From an uncultured bacterium (GTDB taxonomy: Bacteria; Zixibacteria; MSB-5A5; CAIYYT01), in assembly GCA_963726455.1 (NCBI GenBank), contig CAVSCK010000001.1:1-64000 (forward strand): DNA of 64,000 nucleotides, in the 5' to 3' direction. A model generated the notes under the pieces. That model saw nothing but the letters and a program-made list of their open reading frames with translations, had not been told where the DNA came from and made no database searches. The translations under genes and the position numbers were made by a program. Of this stretch, positions 31,315 to 40,367 are shown piece after piece. The first letter of the stretch is position 1; each line of letters opens with the position of its first letter.

Positions 31315-33073
31315 TTACTTTCCCTGCCCCGACGGTTGATCATTCGACATACCGGGCATGTCTGCCATTCCCCCCATTCCGGAGACGGCTGCTTTCAATC
31401 GGCTTTCTGAGTCGATCAGAAAGTTCGCGCTGGTTACGACTTCATCACCTGCCGTCACACCCGAAAGCACTTCCGCCCAATCTCCGGCTGTCTGCCCGAG
31501 TTGCAGTAAGCGTGGCTCAAAACGTTTTCCGTCGTGCACCACGAAGGCATACTTGGTGACGCCGCCATCCATCACTGCCGACATGGGGATGGCGAGAACC
31601 GGTGCGCTTGATTCGTCCAACTGAACATCAGCAAACATCCCGGGACGTAACTGCATTGATGAATTGGCAAATTCGAGCCGCACCTTCATTGCTCTCGATT
31701 TTTCGCCCACTGCCGGATAGACAAATGCGACCTTGCCTGAAAGGGTTTGTCCCGGCGATGACGTCACCGTCATCTCGGCGGTTTGGCCGACCTTGACACG
31801 GTCGATATCCTGCTCGTAAACATCAGCCAACACCCAAACATCACTGAGATCAGCGATCGTGAAAAGATTTTGGTCGGCGCCGATGTATTGACCTGGTAAT
31901 ACAGTTTTTTCGAGAACATATCCCGACGCCGGACTTCGAAGTGTCAGGTCGCTTCCCACAGAATCAGAGCTTTCGATGTTGGCGATATCCTGTTGGCTCA
32001 GCCCGAGCAAGTGCAGCTTTTGACGCGCCGCTTGAAGCATCTGTTGTCTCATGTAATGTAAGCTCACTGTCGGCGATTGTCTTCTGCGTGGCCTTGCGCG
32101 CCACCATCAAGTCTTGTTGTGCCTGCGCCAACTCAGGACTATAGAGCGACAGCAACGGCTGTCCCGCTTTGACATATTGCCCGGTTTGATCGACGAACAG
32201 GTCTCTCACCCAGCCGCTGGCGCGAATATGAACATTTGCAGTATGTGTTTCATCGGCCGTCACATAACCCGCAAGCCGCAGTTTGTTCGCGATGATTCGT
32301 TGTTCGACTTCTCCGATGCGAATGTTGATTAGCTGCTGGCGCTCCGGCTCGATGGTCACGGTGACGAGTCCCGGAACGGTTCCAGTCGTTGTTGAATCGT
32401 GAGTCGCTTGAGTTTCCGGCATAGACATCCCCGACATGTCTATTGCCTGACCGGAACTCGACACCGGTTCTGACACTAGTAACAACGTCATCCCGCAGAT
32501 TGGACATGCACCCGGCTTTTCGGCCACAACCTGCGGGTCCATAGGGCACGAGTATTGTCCCGCCTTGGCTCCCGAGGTTGCCCCGTCTCCCGCGTTCGTC
32601 TCCGGTTTCGAAACCAACTCCAGGTTCATACCACACTTAGGGCACTTCGACGGTTCATCCGAAACCACTTCCGGATCCATTGGGCACGTGTACTGTCCCG
32701 GTTTGGCCTTGACCGTGGTGTCACTGCGCGCTCCCTGGCCCGCCATCGTCTTGGTCGAATCCGTCACAGTCGCGCTCTTGCCATTGTCGTTGATCGGTAC
32801 CAGCGTCATGCCGCAGATCGGACACTCGCCCGGCTGATTGCTCACGTACGTCGGGTGCATCGGGCAGTGGTACATAACAGCGCTGGCCTGAGTCGACGAC
32901 CAGGGCGTGGCGCCGAAATAGCTCAGCACCATGAAGAGAGCAAATATCGAAATCGCTCCCAGTATGATCCAGCGCACAATTGCCATCGTGTGAACGTATG
33001 GCGGGGGCGCCTCTACTCCTTCCGGCAGCGGCTCGTGCTCGTAGGGATTGTATTCCTCGTGTGGTTCTGACAT
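31315..33073 (-). CDS. cusB: CusB-like RND periplasmic adaptor with three heavy-metal-binding domains; frameshift near 32055
   Basis: YHCPMHP/YTCPMDP/YSCPMDP each followed by CPx[12 protein letters not shown]...[24 protein letters not shown]. Confidence 0.85.
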
Positions 33074-33077
33074 TTAT

Positions 33078-34392
33078 CTATCCTTGGTTTGATTGTTGCT
33101 TCCGCTCTGTAAGTCCGGAAAGTTGCGCCGGATCAGTCGTGTAACGTTCCACTTCTGCGATTGTCTTGGCGAGATCGGCATCAAGCTGATTTGCCGTCAG
33201 GCGATCGCGAAACATTGTAATCGCATAACTAAGTACCGTCGACAACGTCGCGCGATTGTTGATGTAGCCGGAGAATGCATTGCGATACGCTTCCTCGTCG
33301 GCGGGAATAATCCGCTCGCGATACAGGCCGGCGTTCTCCCGCAGATGAAGCGCGTCAAGATAACAGCATCTTAAGTCTGGTCGTAACATCGCGAGCCAAC
33401 TGCGCCGCCTCTGCATCGGTGCTTTGCTTCATCAGATCCATCGACTTACCCATCGCGCGCTGCTTGCGGCCGGAGAAAATCGGTAGCGACAAAGTTGCCT
33501 GGAAACCGACCATGTTGTCGCGCTGTTCCATCTCGGTGCTAAAGCGAAAATTATAGTTCGCAGACAGACCAAGCATCGGCCACTCCATCCGGCGCTCCGC
33601 TTCCGCAGAGAAGCCGTAGCTTTTCGCCTGTTCCGAGAGTTTCTGCAAGGGCGGATAATGCTCTCGCGCTGCGGCAATCCACGGATCAGCATTGGCAGGA
33701 AGCTGGATTGAATCGGGCGTCGCCGGTGCATACATCGGACTCTCGGTCGCCAGCCCCCGCAAGGTATTCAGATTATACTGGGCGCTTTCGACCTGATGTG
33801 ACGATGGCGTAAGTTGTGTTTGCAGCCGCCACAAATCGGCCTGAGCCGCGTAGACATCTTCCGGATTTGACTGGGAGGTTGCCACTCGCGACTTCACCGA
33901 CGCCACCACATCCTGCGATACCTCGATTTGCTTCATCAACAAATCGACGCTGCGCAGACTGTAATACAGATCGAAATATGCCAGCTTCGCCGCGGTGGCG
34001 AGTTCCAATTCAGAGTCATAACGATCCTGTGTAGCCGCTCGCGCATCAGCCAGCGCCGACTTCTTTTCGAGTCCCTTCTGGCCCGCGTAGGGGATATTCT
34101 GGCTCAATCCCACCATTCTCATGGTCATCGGGTCCATCTTGAAATCAAATGAGGTCGGCAGATTCACAACTCCGAGCATCAGCATCGGATCATCCCAGGC
34201 GCCGGCAGACCTGGCCTTGGATTTGGCGGCATCTTCCATATAGCGCATGGCAGCCAACCGATCATTATGCTGAATGACCTCGGAAATAACCTGTTTCAGA
34301 CTCAGACTATCAGCTGTAGATTGTGGCCGTACAGTGACCGGACTCGAGAGACTGAGGATTAGTACCATAAACACAGTAACCTTCCAATTCAT
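33078..34392 (-). CDS. TolC-family outer-membrane efflux protein; 1-nt insertion near 33362
   Basis: AGAWDDPML...SQNIPYAGQK; LSLPIF. Removing one T (ctg tta tct to ctg tat ctt) restores RLKMLYLDA. Confidence 0.82.
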
Positions 34393-34691
34393 CTCTCCTC
34401 CTTACTGCAATCCGTATGCCGGACTGGTACAATCCGAGAATCTGCGATCTGACAACGGTTTACACAGGGAAAACATCGGTGCTGAACATTCTACGTCCAC
34501 AATATTGGCGAAATCTAGAGAATATTATTCAACAAGACAATCGGGAATTGGACATGTGAGCCTGCTCGGGTGGGTGGGCCTTTTCATTCTCAACGACTTA
34601 GCGAATGTTGCCTCGATGGGCACATAGATTGAACCGTACGAGGGTTAATGGTGTTATATCAGAAGGCAGAAGAAACAGAAAGGATTTAGAA

Positions 34692-35162
34692 ATGTTCAGA
34701 ACGGCAATCTACTTCACCGCATTGTTATCGATTCTAGCTTTCGGCTCGCTGCTCGCAGCCGACAGCACCAAAGTTGTGCCGGCTCCGTCGAAACCCAAAG
34801 AACTTCACGCGCAGGAGCTTTGCCCGGTCATGGGAAGCAAGATCGACAAGAAGATGTTCCTCGATATGCAGGGTCAGCGAGTGTACTTCTGCTGTGCCGG
34901 TTGCTCGGATAAATTCAAGGCAGACCCGGACAAATATTTCAAGCAGGCCGCTGCCGATGGCGTCGTGTTCGAAAACGTTCAGAAGATCTGTCCGGTCTCA
35001 GGCGAGAAGATTGACAAGAAGGTGTACTCCGACTGGCAGGGACGCCGAGTGTATTTTTGCTGCAAGAAGTGCCGCTCGCTGTTCCCGAGTTCACCAGACA
35101 AATACATTAAACAACTCGACATGCCGCCCGACAGCGTCAAGTGGGATAAGAGTATGATGTAG
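34692..35162 (+). CDS. Exported tandem YHS-domain protein (metal-binding)
   Basis: CPVMG...YFCCAGC and CPVSG...YFCCKKC; divergent from the efflux operon. Confidence 0.85.
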   Translation: MFRTAIYFTALLSILAFGSLLAADSTKVVPAPSKPKELHAQELCPVMGSKIDKKMFLDMQGQRVYFCCAGCSDKFKADPDKYFKQAAADGVVFENVQKICPVSGEKIDKKVYSDWQGRRVYFCCKKCRSLFPSSPDKYIKQLDMPPDSVKWDKSMM

Positions 35163-35340: not shown

Positions 35341-35370
35341 TTGACAATCAACGACGCATTTTGCTATAAT
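35341..35370 (+). promoter_or_regulatory. Consensus sigma70 promoter for the rSAM-precursor unit
   Basis: TTGACA-N18-TATAAT with extended -10 TG. Confidence 0.8.
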
Positions 35371-35467
35371 GGGTCAGCGCCGGGACTCAATGGCAAAAAG
35401 TAGCTAGCAATTCATTCAGTGAGACACGCCCTCTTGTCTCATAGTGCCCTTTCTACCAGGGAGCATA

Positions 35468-36805
35468 GTGAAACCGTCACGCTACAACATCTTCGTAGAT
35501 ACGAACGACGGCAAGAAACTGGCATTCAACAGCGCCAGTGCCGCCTTGGCCGAGATCGAATCCGACAAGTTCCCCACGATTCAAAAGCTGCTCGACAATT
35601 CAGATTCCGCCGCCACGGCCGAGGAAAAGCAATATCTGGCGGCTCTCGGTCATGGCAAATATCTTATCGAAGACGACATCGACGAAATCACGCTGTTGAA
35701 AGTACGCAATAGCAAGAATCGCTTCTCCGGCAAAATCATCATGCTCACGATTGCACCGACGCTGGCGTGCAATCTTCGTTGCGACTACTGCTTTGTAAAT
35801 CAACAGGCCGTGCGCATGACACCGGAAACTGAGCAGGCGCTTTTGCGCTTCAAGGAAAACGAATTACAGCGTGCCGAAGGTCTCTCCATTACCTGGTTTG
35901 GCGGCGAGCCGACTTTGTGTCCTGACACGATCGAACGGCTGCAGGAAGGGTATCGGGAACTTTGTTCTCGTTACCAAGTCGAACTCTATCCCAGCGGTAT
36001 CGTGACCAATGGTTACTTGCTTGATGCCGCCATGTCATCCCGGCTTTCGCGTGCGGGAATCGCCAGCGCCCAAACAACGCTGGACGGCCCGGAGCGGATT
36101 CACGACAGCCGCCGTCGCCTGCAAAGCGGCAAGGGCACCTTCCAGAGGATCGTCGACAACATCGAGCAGTCGTACAATACGCTCAAGATATCGGTGCGCG
36201 TGAATGTCGATCGCGACAACATCAATTCCGCTCTCGAGTTGATGGAGTACTTGGATGACCGGAAACTCCTGCGGAAGGTCGGCATCCATTTCGCGCAGGT
36301 GCTGCCCTCTAAAGGCGCGTGTGCCGACATGCGCGACAACTGTTACTCCGAGCAGGAATATGCTCGGGAACAACTGCGCTTGTACCGGATGCTGATCGAT
36401 CACGGCTACAATCATATCAGTTACCCCAATCCTGCCGGTGGCGGTCTCTGTGCCGCTTGTTCCGACAATGCCTGGGTGGTCTCGCCGACCGGCGAACTGT
36501 TCAAGTGCTGGGAAGAAATCTCGGCCAACAGTAGTGACTCAGTCGGCTCGATCTTCGACCTGAAGACGGAATCGCACAAAACGTCCAAACTCAACAAATA
36601 TTTGGCCTGGAATCCCTTCGAAAAGTCAGATTGCGTTTCCTGCAATATTCTGCCGCTCTGTATGGGCGGCTGTCCGCAGCAAGCGCTGGAAATCAATTCG
36701 GAAAAGGCGGGAGCCTGCTGCTCCTGGAAGTATAACCTCGCGGAGATGCTTACGCTCCGCTATCTGTGTGACCAACAACAGAATCAGAAGGAGGTGAGAC
36801 AATGA
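35468..36805 (+). CDS. Radical SAM/SPASM peptide maturase with putative N-terminal RRE
   Basis: CNLRCDYC, WFGGEP, TTLDG; SPASM C...GELFKCWE...CVSCNILPLCMGGC...CC. About 85 aa precede the rSAM domain (MKPSRYNIFV, GTG start, AGGGAG RBS). Confidence 0.9.
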   Translation: MKPSRYNIFVDTNDGKKLAFNSASAALAEIESDKFPTIQKLLDNSDSAATAEEKQYLAALGHGKYLIEDDIDEITLLKVRNSKNRFSGKIIMLTIAPTLACNLRCDYCFVNQQAVRMTPETEQALLRFKENELQRAEGLSITWFGGEPTLCPDTIERLQEGYRELCSRYQVELYPSGIVTNGYLLDAAMSSRLSRAGIASAQTTLDGPERIHDSRRRLQSGKGTFQRIVDNIEQSYNTLKISVRVNVDRDNINSALELMEYLDDRKLLRKVGIHFAQVLPSKGACADMRDNCYSEQEYAREQLRLYRMLIDHGYNHISYPNPAGGGLCAACSDNAWVVSPTGELFKCWEEISANSSDSVGSIFDLKTESHKTSKLNKYLAWNPFEKSDCVSCNILPLCMGGCPQQALEINSEKAGACCSWKYNLAEMLTLRYLCDQQQNQKEVRQ

Positions 36806-36903
36806 GATTCATCGAACAGCCAATGCCGGATGTTATCAACAAGTGCCCCATTTATCAATGGTGGTGTCCATTCGGATATTATCCGATCAGCCCGCGCGAC
36901 TAG
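36802..36903 (+). CDS. RiPP precursor peptide 1: MRFIEQPMPDVINKCPIYQWWCPFGYYPISPRD (33 aa)
   Basis: AGGAGGTGA RBS; ATGA overlap with the rSAM stop; homologous to two downstream peptides. Confidence 0.88.
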   Translation: MRFIEQPMPDVINKCPIYQWWCPFGYYPISPRD

Positions 36904-36930
36904 TTAGCTCGCGGCGCTACTAAATCAAGT

Positions 36931-36978
36931 GAAGGAGTGCAGGGAAGTTCTCGACCGAGACGCACTCCTTCTTTTTTT
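36931..36978 (+). terminator. Conserved post-precursor hairpin/terminator, copy 1
   Basis: GAAGGAGTGC...GCACTCCTTC followed by a T-run. Confidence 0.75.
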
Positions 36979-37044
36979 GAGTCGACATGAAAGCCGTCAA
37001 GCGCAATACCTGAATTCTCCGGATTGTCTTATATTGTTGAACGT

Positions 37045-38058
37045 ATGAACCCGACACGAATTGAAAAGCCCGAAATGGTCGCGTGGGAAATCACCCGCCG
37101 CTGCAATCTGACTTGTCCGCATTGTTACACGGCCGCCAGCGGCAAGGATTTTCCCGAATTATCGACGCAGGAATGTCGCGCAATCATCGACGATCTCATC
37201 GCGCTCGGCACAGTCACTATCGGCTGGACCGGCGGCGAACCGCTGTTGCGTGATGATCTCGAGGAATTGATGATCTACGCCCGCGACAAAGGCGGCATTA
37301 AGTCGGGTGTTACCACCAACGGAGTCCTGTTGGATGAAAAACGCGCCCACTGTCTCAAGCAGGCGGGCGTGGATTCACTGCAAATCAGTCTCGACGGTTC
37401 CACTGCTGAAAGAAATCACCGCATTCGTCGCGCCACCGCCGAGGAATTCGAGAAAACTCTGGCCGCCATCCACATTTGTGCGCCACTCGGTTTTCGCCTT
37501 TGTATCGCCACAGTGTTGGGAAAAGAGAATCTTGATGACGCTTGGGAGATGCTCAAGCTTGCGCATCGCGAGGGTGTCAAGTATTTCCGTTTTTGCGGCT
37601 TTGTGCCGGTTGGTCGTGGCAAGCACAATAGTTCGTTGGAACGTCTGCTGTTCGACTCCGACCTTTTGGAAATCCGGAAATTCGTTGATGAGGCCGCGGC
37701 TCTCGATCATCCCAAAGTTGCGTTCGATCCCGCCTTCGGCCCATTGGCGCCTCGCTATGACTTCCATGTCTGCAATGCCGGCGTTCACACTTTCTATCTG
37801 AATTGCCTCGGTGACGTCTATCCCTGCACTTCGCTCCTGAACAAGCGCTTCATCGTGGGAAACATCAAGGAACGTCCACTGGCCGACATCTGGAACGATC
37901 CAAAGATGACGGAAATCGCTCAATTTCTGCGCGATCAAATACGTGGCGAATGCAGCAGTTGTCGCCATTTCCACAGTTGCCGGGGAGCTTGCCGTGGCAT
38001 CACCTATGCTCACACCGGCGACCTTTTCGCTTCGTTTCCCATGTGCCTCAAGTGGTGA
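37045..38058 (+). CDS. Second radical SAM/SPASM protein (NirJ/PqqE-like, no N-terminal RRE)
   Basis: WEITRRCNLTCPHCY, TGGEPLLR, QISLDG; CNAG...GDVYPC...CSSCRHFHSCRGACR...C. Confidence 0.9.
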   Translation: MNPTRIEKPEMVAWEITRRCNLTCPHCYTAASGKDFPELSTQECRAIIDDLIALGTVTIGWTGGEPLLRDDLEELMIYARDKGGIKSGVTTNGVLLDEKRAHCLKQAGVDSLQISLDGSTAERNHRIRRATAEEFEKTLAAIHICAPLGFRLCIATVLGKENLDDAWEMLKLAHREGVKYFRFCGFVPVGRGKHNSSLERLLFDSDLLEIRKFVDEAAALDHPKVAFDPAFGPLAPRYDFHVCNAGVHTFYLNCLGDVYPCTSLLNKRFIVGNIKERPLADIWNDPKMTEIAQFLRDQIRGECSSCRHFHSCRGACRGITYAHTGDLFASFPMCLKW

Positions 38059-38128
38059 TCACTGCCTCTTTGACCCGGTCTTCAGGCGAGACGGAAGCCA
38101 AGTTTCAAGCGGTCGAACCTCTTTCAAA

Positions 38129-38157
38129 TTGACTTCGCTTAATGAGATCTGTATTAT
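38129..38157 (+). promoter_or_regulatory. sigma70 promoter for precursor 2
   Basis: TTGACT-N17-TATTAT. Confidence 0.65.
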
Positions 38158-38299
38158 ATCTGAGTTAACATAGACAAATAGTCGCAGTTGGAGTCATCGT
38201 TTGCCGATGCCTCCCGCACCTAATTGCAGCCATAAAACAGGAGCGCACGACGTTCCGATTCTAATGGATCTCAGGCAAACGGAAAGGAGGTGAGAAAGA

Positions 38300-38401
38300 A
38301 TGAAGTTCATCGAACAGCCAATGCCGGAAGTCATAAACAGTTGCAACATGTTTAAACCCTTTTGCCCGATACGGTATTACCCGATCAGTCCCCTGGTCTG
38401 A
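38300..38401 (+). CDS. RiPP precursor peptide 2: MKFIEQPMPEVINSCNMFKPFCPIRYYPISPLV (33 aa)
   Basis: AAAGGAGGTGA RBS; leader and YYPISP tail shared with precursor 1. Confidence 0.88.
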   Translation: MKFIEQPMPEVINSCNMFKPFCPIRYYPISPLV

Positions 38402-38427
38402 TTGGCCCGTGGTGTCTCGAATGTAGT

Positions 38428-38469
38428 GAAGGAGTGCACGGAAGCTCTCGAATAAGACGGCACTCCTTC
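38428..38469 (+). repeat. Conserved post-precursor hairpin, copy 2 (no U-tract)
   Basis: GAAGGAGTGC...GCACTCCTTC stem identical to copy 1, with a similar interior. Confidence 0.75.
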
Positions 38470-38487
38470 TCGTAAGCGAAACACGGC

Positions 38488-38516
38488 TTGACTTAGACGC
38501 ATTCGTTGACTATTAT
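38488..38516 (+). promoter_or_regulatory. sigma70 promoter for precursor 3
   Basis: TTGACT-N17-TATTAT, the same hexamers as the precursor 2 promoter. Confidence 0.65.
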
Positions 38517-38605
38517 TCAAACATCGAACTAGAAGACATCGCGTTCCAGAGCACATGATGCTCTCATTTTCTGGGCCTGTCAAATGAGTGAAAGGAGGTG
38601 AGATC

Positions 38606-38701
38606 GTGAGATTTATCGAACAGCCGATTCCGGAAATCCTGAAGCCGCCGTCATGCATTCGCTATTGCAAGTTATTCTTCCCGATCCTTCCGCCGTGGTA
38701 G
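38606..38701 (+). CDS. RiPP precursor peptide 3: MRFIEQPIPEILKPPSCIRYCKLFFPILPPW (31 aa, GTG start)
   Basis: AAAGGAGGTGA RBS; FIEQP leader; FFPILP tail; tandem TAG TAG stops. Confidence 0.83.
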   Translation: MRFIEQPIPEILKPPSCIRYCKLFFPILPPW

Positions 38702-38729
38702 TAGCCGATGCCGAAGCAGAATTGAAATC

Positions 38730-38775
38730 CAAGGTGTGCCTCAGTCGCTTGAAGGCGCGGGGCACTCCTTGTTTT
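38730..38775 (+). terminator. Conserved post-precursor hairpin/terminator, copy 3
   Basis: CAAGGTGTGCC...GGCACTCCTTG followed by TTTT. Confidence 0.65.
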
Positions 38776-38812: not shown

Positions 38813-39139
38813 TTAGTACCCGCAAACCAATCGCCACTCGATCGTATCCCCTGCAGATGGCATGAACTGATCGCAGGCTTCCTGCGCGGGCTTGCGGTTA
38901 ACGAAATATAGCCAGAAAGCCGTTCGCGTCTGCGCAACACTGTCGATTGACTTTACGAACACTCCGGCAGCCGTAGAATCCACTTCTACCGGCCAATGCT
39001 CGCGAGTCTGCGTCAGAACCGATGTTCCGGCCTTGGCAACGAATCCCTGCGCTCTGAGAATCTGTGGCTCGTGGCTGCATGAAATGATCAGCAATGCCGC
39101 CGCAGCTAGCAGCAGAACTGTCCTGGCGAAGTTCGACAT
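38813..39139 (-). CDS. DUF4430-like (transcobalamin C-terminal-like) lipoprotein
   Basis: Lipobox IIS-C; FVKSID...FWLYFVN...GDTIEWR. Confidence 0.7.
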   Translation of the reverse strand: MSNFARTVLLLAAAALLIISCSHEPQILRAQGFVAKAGTSVLTQTREHWPVEVDSTAAGVFVKSIDSVAQTRTAFWLYFVNRKPAQEACDQFMPSAGDTIEWRLVCGY

Positions 39140-39248: not shown

Positions 39249-40367
39249 ATGGCAAATAACGAGTTACTAAGAATCGACGGGAGTTTCGGGGAAGGCGGCG
39301 GCCAGATCCTCAGGACGTCCTTATCATTATCAACCTTGCTCGGTCGTCCTGTCGAAGTCGTCAATATTCGCAAGAACCGCAAGTTTCCGGGACTGATGCC
39401 GCAGCACTTGACGGCGGTCAAGGCCTGTCAGACGATTTGCGAGGCCAAAGTCACCGGCGCCGAGATCAATTCCGAACGACTCGAATTTACGCCGGGAAAG
39501 ATTCGTTACGGCAATTACACGTGGGATGTAGCCGAAAGCAAGAAGTCTGCCGGCGCAGCAACCTTGGTGCTGCAAACGGTTCTGCTGCCTTTATTGTTCG
39601 CCCGCAATGAATCTAATCTGACTATCAAGGGCGGTACTCACGTTCCCTGGTCGCCACCGGCTACGTATCTCAAACAGGTATTCCTGCCGGTGCTCGGCTT
39701 GATGGGTTGCCAGACTTTCCTGAAGATCAATCGTTGGGGTTGGTATCCTGAAGGCGGCGGTGATATTTCGTGCCGTATTCGTCCGATTGACAAACTGCAG
39801 CCGCGCCAGTTTGCCGAGCGTGGTAACTTGCTCAAGCTATACGGTCTCTCCGCAGTCTCGAATGTTGGCAACAACGTCGGCGACCGGCAGATGCGGGCGG
39901 CGCAAAAGCTGCTCAAGGCGGCAAATCTGGATGCGGAAATCCGCGTCAAGGAAGTTCCGGCTTCCGGCAAAGGGTCGCTGCTGTTTCTTACGGCGGAGTT
40001 CGAAAACGGCCGCGCCGGATTCACGACACTGGGCGAGAAAGGCCTCCCTGCGGAGAAAGTCTCCGAGGCGACTGTAAACGAGTTGAAAAACTTCCTCGGC
40101 AAATCGGTCTGCCTCGATCACTATCTCGCCGATCAATTGATCCCATACGTGGCGCTTTGCCAAACCCGCATCGAAATGAACGTCTCCAAAATCACAAATC
40201 ATCTGCTCACCAATCTTTGGGTGGTGAAACGATTCCTGCCGATTCAGTACGATCTCAAAGGACCGCTCGGATATCCCGGAACTTTGATTATCGAACCGGC
40301 TCCACCACCGCCGCCACCACCACCTCCTCCGACTGAAACGCCTGCTGAGACTCCGGCGAGCAATTGA
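39249..40367 (+). CDS. rtcA: RNA 3'-terminal phosphate cyclase
   Basis: [52 protein letters not shown]. Confidence 0.95.

Follow-up and report, generated by a model that had tools for sequence, protein, structure and literature searches.

What do three very short open reading frames (ORFs) do beside two radical S-adenosylmethionine (SAM) enzymes in the genome of an uncultured member of the Zixibacteria? The locus in question occupies positions 35341 to 38775 of the window, by which we mean the whole stretch of DNA analysed here: the first 64,000 nucleotides of contig CAVSCK010000001.1 (assembly GCA_963726455.1). Our answer, which we hold with a probability of roughly 80%, is that the locus is a module for peptides that are ribosomally synthesised and then modified after translation (RiPPs), in which the three peptides are the substrates of the two enzymes, hereafter rSAM1 and rSAM2. 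The module is an uncharacterised variant within the radical SAM/SPASM kind of RiPP system; it is a lead for genome mining, not a new category.

The small ORFs are three paralogues of 31-33 aa that all adjoin the two radical SAM/SPASM genes and, like them, lie on the forward strand. Precursor peptides 1 (36802..36903) and 2 (38300..38401) start at ATG and have 33 aa each, and precursor peptide 3 (38606..38701) starts at a GTG, read as Met, and has 31 aa. A AGGAGGTGA ribosome-binding site lies 5' of each ORF and, together with the first 9-10 codons, forms a family of 43-nt direct repeats whose members are 77-86% identical to the first copy. The start codon of ORF 1, at 36802, overlaps the rSAM1 stop, which ends at 36805 (ATGA), and rSAM2 sits between ORF 1 and ORF 2. 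The first-pass annotation had described this same arrangement from the letters of the DNA, and we confirm its coordinates, translations, ribosome-binding sites, ATGA coupling and gene order. It had also called the three ORFs unannotated, which is correct except for ORF 2, whose exact sequence is already a called protein, with no name, in public collections.

Each window peptide contains two Cys residues, and the C-termini read PRD, PLV and PPW. The core of precursor 3, CIRYCKLFFPILPPW, is the nearest of the three to the family consensus given below. Scanned in six frames, the whole genome (3.64 Mb in 5 contigs) gave 12 matches to F[ILV]E[QE]P, only these three of which open a short ORF. A hidden Markov model (HMM) of the peptides, run over 118,915 short frames of the same genome, retrieved only ORFs 1 and 2 at E<0.01. 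Because both genome-wide scans are this specific, the ORF set is more than a product of chance.

The small ORFs are conserved and under selection, and they stand in strict synteny with rSAM1 and rSAM2. A scan of species-representative genomes for rSAM1 homologues left 80 loci. At 39 of them, mostly in metagenome-assembled genomes (MAGs) of Zixibacteria, an rSAM2 orthologue (48-60% identity) comes directly after the rSAM1 orthologue (42-54%); we refer to these as the paired loci (L013-L048, L053, L060 and L061). The other 41 have no adjoining rSAM2 orthologue, two of them ending inside rSAM1. Related peptides are present at 36 of the 39 paired loci. The earlier proposal had been staked on homologous rSAMs occurring with homologous peptides, and this is what they do; its central claim, that the peptides are RiPP precursors of the adjoining radical SAM/SPASM enzymes, is very probably correct.

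These counts were built up in three steps of differing independence. A first HMM, made from the window and sister-genus peptides only, found peptides at 27 of the 39 paired loci and at none of the 41 others (E<0.05), 9 of the 27 being training genomes met again. Inspection added related peptides at 9 further paired loci, often 5' of rSAM1 and in up to three copies. A second HMM matched 35 of the 39 paired loci and one of the 41 others, and in the whole of our genome only ORFs 1 and 2; as this count is circular for the training loci, the controls are its informative part.

The module also occurs in a sister genus. Among 41 related genomes searched, rSAM1 orthologues of 43-46% identity occur in 10 sister-genus genomes, together with one partial match. 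All 10 complete sister-genus loci encode a 29-30-aa ORF that has a Shine-Dalgarno sequence and shares 4 nt with the rSAM1 stop, an rSAM2 homologue coming next, and at an 11th locus the contig ends right after MKFIETPST. The three other genomes of our own genus (84, 96 and 100% complete) gave rSAM1 matches of only 33% identity or weaker. When 201 genomes were sampled evenly across the phylum, 41 had an rSAM1 match at E<=1e-90, and 36 of these were at least 41% identical. From these counts the module is widespread but patchy, and roughly one in six of the species genomes sampled from the phylum carries it.

A tree of 71 rSAM1 homologues places the window and all 31 paired rows that it contains in one group (Shimodaira-Hasegawa-like approximate likelihood ratio test, SH-aLRT, 95), with no other row inside. 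Left out of the tree were L020, L022, L024 and L048, which have a stop inside the extracted match, and rows whose best match spans 380 query residues or fewer, among them L042, L053, L060, L061, L062 and L076. In-frame stops in some matches had suggested selenocysteine or other recoding. We rejected this for the four rows examined, in which the stops are at gene ends, because the alignment had overrun the start or stop. Some genomes (L021 and L026; G101:C109 and G104:C55) have two tandem rSAM1 paralogues, 42-48% identical to that of the window, before a single rSAM2.

The nine distinct sister-genus ORFs record how the peptide has been selected. Pairwise comparison gave 69 synonymous and 20 nonsynonymous differences in codons 1-7, 60 and 67 in codons 8-13, and 150 and 31 in codons 14-30. 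The peptide ORF is under purifying selection: leader head and core are constrained, and the linker between them is free. This leader-linker-core pattern points to a translated, selected peptide.

In its general form the family reads M[KR][FL]I-x-x-P, a short variable stretch, Cys, and aromatic-x-I-[LI]-[PC]. An alignment of 39 distinct peptides gives M[KR][FLI][IV] and, after some 9 variable residues, a Cys at around position 15 and the same C-terminal motif, and the sister-genus consensus is MKFIE[TS]PSTAI-KPCPCYK-LFLILPPLQD. The FIEQP start, presented in the first-pass annotation as the leader of the family, is a local variant, and what the family conserves is M[KR][FL]I together with aromatic-x-I-[LI]-[PC]. 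This leader had also been held to lie outside every known class. In fact, clostridial Clo7bot peptides (TIGR04333) begin MKFIKKP, MRFIKNP or MKYIIK, and a profile-profile alignment of the window family with them (hhalign) pairs residues 1-9 (E 3.4e-4, probability 37.7%), so that FIEQP is a variant of the catalogued M[KR][FY]I-x-x-P type. The earlier suggestion of a new RiPP family was right in kind, but it overstated the novelty of the leader and missed the size of the family.

Searched against 1.84 billion representative proteins, the first profile had 12 matches at E<=1e-3, of which eleven are family-type peptides of 28-33 aa, including two further FIEQP-type ones, and are named only 'hypothetical protein'. 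The sole long hit, the 216-aa public protein P0126, is repetitive, with a WSPMTAISSFCNIYHVLCRLLRRT-like unit in four copies; no relationship is apparent, and its match to 'AI..C.IY' probably arose by chance. None of the peptides tested is matched by a Pfam or NCBIfam model, a protein atlas search with peptide 1 gave no usable match, and the peptide motifs were not found in the literature searched.

One subgroup of paired loci (L028, L030, L034, L038, L039 and L040) has its precursors 5' of rSAM1 and a leader of the form M[KR]L[IV]xLPG. In most of its cores the motif is doubled, [HY]YIIC ... GP-x-YIIC, and L038 has three tandem copies of the precursor. The rSAM1 enzymes of these six loci form a single subclade (SH-aLRT 99).

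rSAM1 (35468..36805) is a radical SAM/SPASM peptide maturase of 445 aa. Its start is most likely GTG 35468, as first proposed, since relatives have a stop just 5' of MKPSRYN and the public protein has 445 aa; an upstream in-frame GTG at 35444 is less likely. The protein matches PF04055 at 54 bits and the SPASM model TIGR04085 at 49.5 bits (cut-off 27). Numbered from 35444, the CX3CX2C motif is C109/C113/C116, and these residues are invariant in 17 homologues together with C293, C300, C336, C355, C397, C400, C406, C410 and C425. Nearly all named homologues are called 'SPASM domain-containing protein' and come from Candidatus Zixiibacteriota MAGs, the best being 71% identical.

The best NCBIfam matches of rSAM1 are peptide maturases for Cys-containing RiPPs. 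They are led by the Clo7bot maturase TIGR04334, which aligns over its full length (341.7 bits against a cut-off of 600, E 5e-102), followed by TIGR04463 (308.5 bits; cut-off 525), CefB (229.7; 600), FlmE/OhkG (180; 500) and the geopeptide maturase (155.5; 400). PapB (NF047865) scores 123.7 bits against 340 and the SCIFF maturase (TIGR03974) 77.4 against 425. Models for triceptide or cyclophane enzymes also stay below their cut-offs (GrrM/OscB, 55.8 against 310; YhhB, 62.5 against 445; AmcB, 59 against 425). The paper on the FlmR/OhkR arginases deals with different precursors, which carry a DD(I/V)LF motif, and the portion of it available to us says nothing on the chemistry of the FlmE/OhkG radical SAM enzymes (PMC12703449).

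An AlphaFold2 model of rSAM1, with a predicted local distance difference test (pLDDT) value of 85.5, contains an N-terminal beta/alpha domain before the barrel. The top full-length folds are maturases that bear a RiPP recognition element (RRE), namely TigE (8vpo), CteB (5why/5wgg) and SuiB (5v1q), and CteB is also the best sequence match in the PDB (4.3e-12). No Pfam RRE model matches rSAM1. Judged from the predicted fold, its N-terminal domain (about residues 1-100) appears to be RRE-like, and we count it as an RRE. With the CX3CX2C motif and SPASM domain, this putative RRE and an adjoining short precursor, rSAM1 has the general features of a radical SAM/SPASM RiPP maturase.

Modelling rSAM1 together with peptide 1 gave a complex score of 0.84 (runs at 0.86, 0.84 and 0.83), compared with 0.02 for the best of three controls. 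At least 44% of contacts agree between runs, and the pLDDT of the partner is at least 45. In the model, peptide residues 1-8 contact rSAM1 residues 26-38 (including the strand 34-38), 63-72 and 439-443, and peptide residues 12-22 and 24 contact rSAM1 residues 88-102, 146-150, 182, 327-343, 355-356 and 410. The model supports, without proving, RRE-type recognition of the leader by rSAM1.

rSAM2 (37024 or 37045..38058) has 344 aa if it starts at TTG 37024 and 337 aa if it starts at ATG 37045. Its CX3CX2C motif lies within RRCNLTCPHC, and it matches PF04055 at 108.9 bits and the SPASM model PF13186 at 49.7 bits; by these matches both enzymes are radical SAM/SPASM proteins, as originally annotated. 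rSAM2 has no N-terminal RRE, because the cluster motif begins about 26 residues in. Its best NCBIfam match is AhbD (TIGR04545; 184.1 bits, cut-off 500), and a pseudo-SAM/SPASM family is matched as well. NirJ (TIGR04051) follows at 170.7 bits against 515, MftC (TIGR03962) at 168.5 against 265, StsB at 152.6 against 625 (profile positions 96-406 only) and PqqE at 127.1 against 381. Alignments to the MftC/StsB/AhbD/NirJ group have E values from 1e-44 to 5e-54, and the nearest PDB sequences are SkfB (6efn, 4.7e-16) and PqqE (6c8v). StsB differs from rSAM2 in having an N-terminal RRE. Unlike the mycofactocin, AhbD and NirJ systems, the rSAM2 loci have no mycofactocin or haem genes around them; rSAM2 always stands with rSAM1 and a peptide.

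These features suggest how the module might work. Peptide residues 1-7/8 (M-R/K-F-I-E-Q-P) would add a beta-strand to the N-terminal RRE of rSAM1, and this docking would thread the core, from residues ~12-24 onward, into the cavity of the SAM and auxiliary clusters. rSAM1 would then abstract a hydrogen and join a core Cys to a carbon of another residue. Given that its clade is that of the Clo7bot, TIGR04463, CefB and PapB-type maturases, the most likely Cys cross-link would be a thioether of the ranthionine or sactionine type; that a thioether is the first link made we regard as about an even chance. A C-C link at the aromatic residues of the core may be formed instead.

Among the nearest known systems are those of the ranthipeptide maturases. 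PapB and CteB share with rSAM1 the combination of RRE, radical SAM and SPASM domains and a short Cys-containing core, and the leader strand modelled on the putative RRE of rSAM1 is as expected for that class. PapA is characterised by Cys-x3-Asp/Glu repeats, and the window peptides differ from it in having none.

rSAM2 would add a second modification to the same peptide, in view of its RRE-less architecture and its position in the MftC/StsB/SkfB/PqqE neighbourhood, which includes StsB, identified as a proven sactisynthase in the text available of PMC10288494. This could be a second thioether through the second Cys, or a C-C or C-O link at aromatic-x-I-[LI]-[PC]. Since rSAM2 has no leader-binding domain of its own, it may act in complex with rSAM1. 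A precedent is thuricin CD, for which the accessible part of one report describes TrnC and TrnD as forming a complex and acting together on the precursor (PMC12093266). As in thuricin CD, two radical SAM enzymes are encoded in the window with at least two short precursors. Unlike in thuricin CD, one of the enzymes has no RRE, the precursors are far shorter, and genes for a transporter or protease are absent.

Several observations weigh against this account of the module. A caveat to the complex model is that its score may be partly memory, because solved maturase-peptide complexes such as that of CteB exist. The fold of the partner itself is uncertain, with a pLDDT below 50 in one run, and the mark that the score passes, reached by 58 of 80 solved complexes and by 2 of 110 mismatched pairs, is only roughly calibrated, as we used our own alignments. 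Neither enzyme reaches any curated family cut-off and the peptides match no family model, so that no chemistry can be carried over from an equivalent family. Synteny is the one line of evidence to suggest that rSAM2 acts on the peptide. Three of the 39 paired loci (L027, L043 and L053) have no peptide, although L027 and L043 are on truncated contigs, and the hairpins after peptides 1 and 2, described below, fold no better than shuffled sequence. Finally, clustering of ORFs of at least 80 aa at 40 loci revealed no conserved protease, exporter or immunity gene nearby, which is unusual for a secreted RiPP. The only clusters common to most loci were the two rSAMs and their antisense shadows, and the next cluster occurred at 8 loci.

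A bolder form of the RiPP reading would account for this last point. The RRE-bearing and RRE-less enzymes might act as a complex to install a type of cross-link not yet described at Cys...aromatic-x-Ile-[Leu/Ile]-[Pro/Cys], for example with the invariant Ile linked to the side chain of a Cys or an aromatic residue, or with the Pro-Pro tail modified. The product would then serve physiology across the phylum, in a redox, metal or membrane-active role, rather than act as an antibiotic. Taken as a whole we consider this doubtful, though it would explain both the strongly conserved core and the absent export, protease and immunity genes.

A different possibility, which we judge unlikely, is that the module makes a conserved intracellular peptide-derived factor, such as a redox cofactor or metal ligand (compare PqqA/PqqE and MftA/MftC), with the precursor consumed or trimmed by housekeeping peptidases. 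Conservation of the core across genera, evident in the codon counts above and in the consensus PCPCYK-LFLILPP, would suit such a factor, as would the lack of conserved exporter, protease and immunity genes. The precursors, at 28-33 aa, are similar in length to PqqA and MftA, and rSAM2 lies in the MftC/PqqE/AhbD neighbourhood. However, rSAM2 misses the MftC and PqqE cut-offs by the margins given above. MftA ends in Val-Tyr and PqqA carries Glu-x3-Tyr, and both motifs are absent from the peptides; moreover, neighbours like MftB/D/E/F or PqqB/C/D are not conserved. In the window the module adjoins metal-efflux genes with YHS, HMBD and OEP domains, which would also fit a metal ligand, but this context is not kept at other loci. 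Patchy occurrence, in 36 of the 201 sampled genomes and not recovered with the rSAM1 query from the other searched genomes of the same genus, fits an accessory trait better than a core cofactor, and three diverged precursors in the window are typical of natural-product diversification.

It is very unlikely, in our estimate, that the system is simply a plain member of the catalogued Clo7bot family (TIGR04333 plus TIGR04334), with nothing new about it. The likeness to these systems of Clostridium and Paraclostridium is considerable: rSAM1 has its best NCBIfam match in their maturase, and both families have very short precursors, including tandem paralogues, with an M[KR][FY]I-x-x-P leader, alignable over residues 1-9, and a first Cys at about residue 15-16 (about 16 in the clostridial peptides, which come in arrays). 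The cores differ, however. Clo7bot cores have at least 4 Cys in a C-x2-3-C ladder, with C16, C19 and C23 invariant and C27 nearly so, whereas those of the window family have 2 Cys and a Pro/aromatic tail with the conserved aromatic-x-I-[LI]-[PC]. None of 13 family peptides matches TIGR04333 at E<=10, compared with all seven clostridial controls (31.5-60.4 bits; cut-off 31). The enzyme is well below the TIGR04334 cut-off, and the clostridial enzymes form a separate clade in the rSAM1 tree, across a starred branch. Because of these differences in peptide match, core, score and clade, we place the window family outside Clo7bot.

The gene arrangement differs as well. The second rSAM is obligatory in the window family, whereas the 41 unpaired loci, clostridial Clo7bot ones included, have no adjoining rSAM2 orthologue. 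In the window family the precursor is often 3' of the enzyme with an ATGA overlap, in contrast to the clostridial arrays, which are upstream. Clo7bot, TIGR04333 and TIGR04334 are not mentioned in the literature that we searched, where the Clo7bot chemistry thus appears to be unpublished.

Least probable of all is that the small ORFs are not substrates but ORFs that arose by chance, upstream or leader peptides with a regulatory role, or small proteins of the membrane, the rSAMs having some other substrate: their translation and modification are read from sequence alone, the hydrophobic tail LFLILPP could itself be membrane-active, and a hairpin lies 3' of each ORF, but the amino-acid sequence is kept through synonymous change, the Shine-Dalgarno sequence and ATGA overlap recur at 10 of 10 sister-genus loci, the peptides accompany the enzyme pair at 36 of 39 loci and are absent from unpaired ones, the complex model passes with clean controls, and the precursor varies in position (5' or 3' of rSAM1, in 1-3 copies) while its sequence type stays constant, which argues against a position-dependent regulatory element.

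If the locus is a RiPP module, as we favour, it would be of use in several respects. To our knowledge the Zixibacteria are represented by metagenomes only, with no characterised natural products. The combination of Zixibacteria, radical SAM and RiPP was not found in the literature searched, and among the papers listed in connection with sactipeptides or ranthipeptides none names Zixibacteria. The datasets described in the accessible text of PMC10288494, which comprise 14,695 RRE-associated radical SAM enzymes and 3,421 predicted sacti-/ranthipeptides, may already contain these enzymes or peptides among their unnamed groups. The module occupies about 3.4 kb in the window, and its minimal unit of two enzymes and one 30-aa peptide takes up less than 3 kb in relatives, which is small enough to be tested directly in a heterologous host. 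Variants sharing one motif, from the PCPCYK-LFLILPP type through the longer FIEQP cores of the window to the doubled YIIC, amount to a ready structure-activity series. The module also ties the clostridial Clo7bot peptides to a much wider superfamily marked by a 7-residue leader, and it offers a concrete case of how an RRE-less SPASM enzyme might be recruited to its peptide.

A sister module of Zixibacteria and Acidobacteriota, likewise widespread, shares the layout, with short precursors, a Clo7bot-like rSAM (33-37% identical to rSAM1) and an RRE-less SPASM rSAM. Its peptides, M[IE]YLIDP...C..KC...C-IKP[LM]YGVP, have a leader of the same kind (M-x-Y-L-I-D-P) but another core motif, and its second rSAM shares only about 29% identity with rSAM2, its closest models being those of the nif11-class-3 and GDL-motif maturases. 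The MIYLIDP/MEYLIDP peptides are found in 1-3 copies 5' of their own rSAM pair at 10 of 11 loci examined (L093-L100, L059 and L066). These loci span Zixibacteria and one Terriglobales MAG, and L059 and L066 add a third, twitch-domain-like rSAM. No NCBIfam model names the peptides or the enzymes of this module.

The genome that contains the window has a copy of the sister module on the reverse strand of its contig C4 (~936000-941500), in the order of two small ORFs (MIYLIDPQ, 2-3 Cys and a YP motif), a Clo7bot-like rSAM 33% identical to rSAM1, and a second SPASM rSAM. The first of these enzymes is frameshifted, through either a pseudogene or an assembly error, since two pieces of the match meet at ~938379 in overlapping frames. 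On contig C3 (~649125-650740), a hydrophobic, Cys-rich ORF of 37 aa (MNLMLRPQSLEVCELV...), which may be another type of precursor, comes after a third Clo7bot-like rSAM of 463 aa.

Potential signals for transcription accompany the genes of the module, all on the forward strand. A promoter-like TTGACA-18-TATAAT of sigma-70 type lies 5' of rSAM1 (35341..35370); it agrees with the consensus at 12 of 12 positions, with a TG before the -10 element, and consensus match is the sole basis for it. Two copies of TTGACT-17-TATTAT, each a 10 of 12 consensus match, lie 5' of precursor 2 (38129..38157) and of precursor 3 (38488..38516). The region has 7 promoter-like sites, compared with 2.6 +/- 1.8 in shuffles. 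Between precursor 1 and rSAM2, a G+C-rich hairpin, GAAGGAGUGC...GCACUCCUUC, is followed by a U-run (36931..36978; z = -0.01) and could possibly be a partial terminator. A hairpin homologous to it, with no clear U-run, lies at 38428..38473 (z = -0.67). The third of these related hairpins, 3' of precursor 3 and ending in GCACUCCUUGUUUUGU (38730..38775; z = -2.19, with 7 of 200 shuffles folding equally well), is the only one to fold clearly better than shuffles, and it is likely to mark the end of the module.

The composition of the surrounding DNA provides no signal of horizontal transfer, as the GC content of 0.50-0.56 over 30-44 kb is unremarkable against a genome value of 0.54. The metal-efflux neighbourhood is on the upstream side of the module (31964-35162) and outside it. 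It consists of a membrane-fusion protein with three HMBD repeats and an HlyD_D23 domain (31964-33073, reverse strand), an OEP outer-membrane factor (33355-34392, reverse strand) and a protein that has two YHS domains and looks secreted (34605-35162, forward strand); a conserved link between these genes and the module was considered and rejected on the evidence of the other loci. On the downstream side, the gene of a 108-aa DUF4430 protein whose N-terminus resembles that of a lipoprotein (..LLIISCSH..) runs towards the end of the module (38813-39139, reverse strand). It is followed by an RNA 3'-terminal phosphate cyclase (RTC and RTC_insert domains; 39249-40367, forward strand) that has an unusual C-terminal tail, in which a run of about 12 consecutive prolines is followed by further residues.

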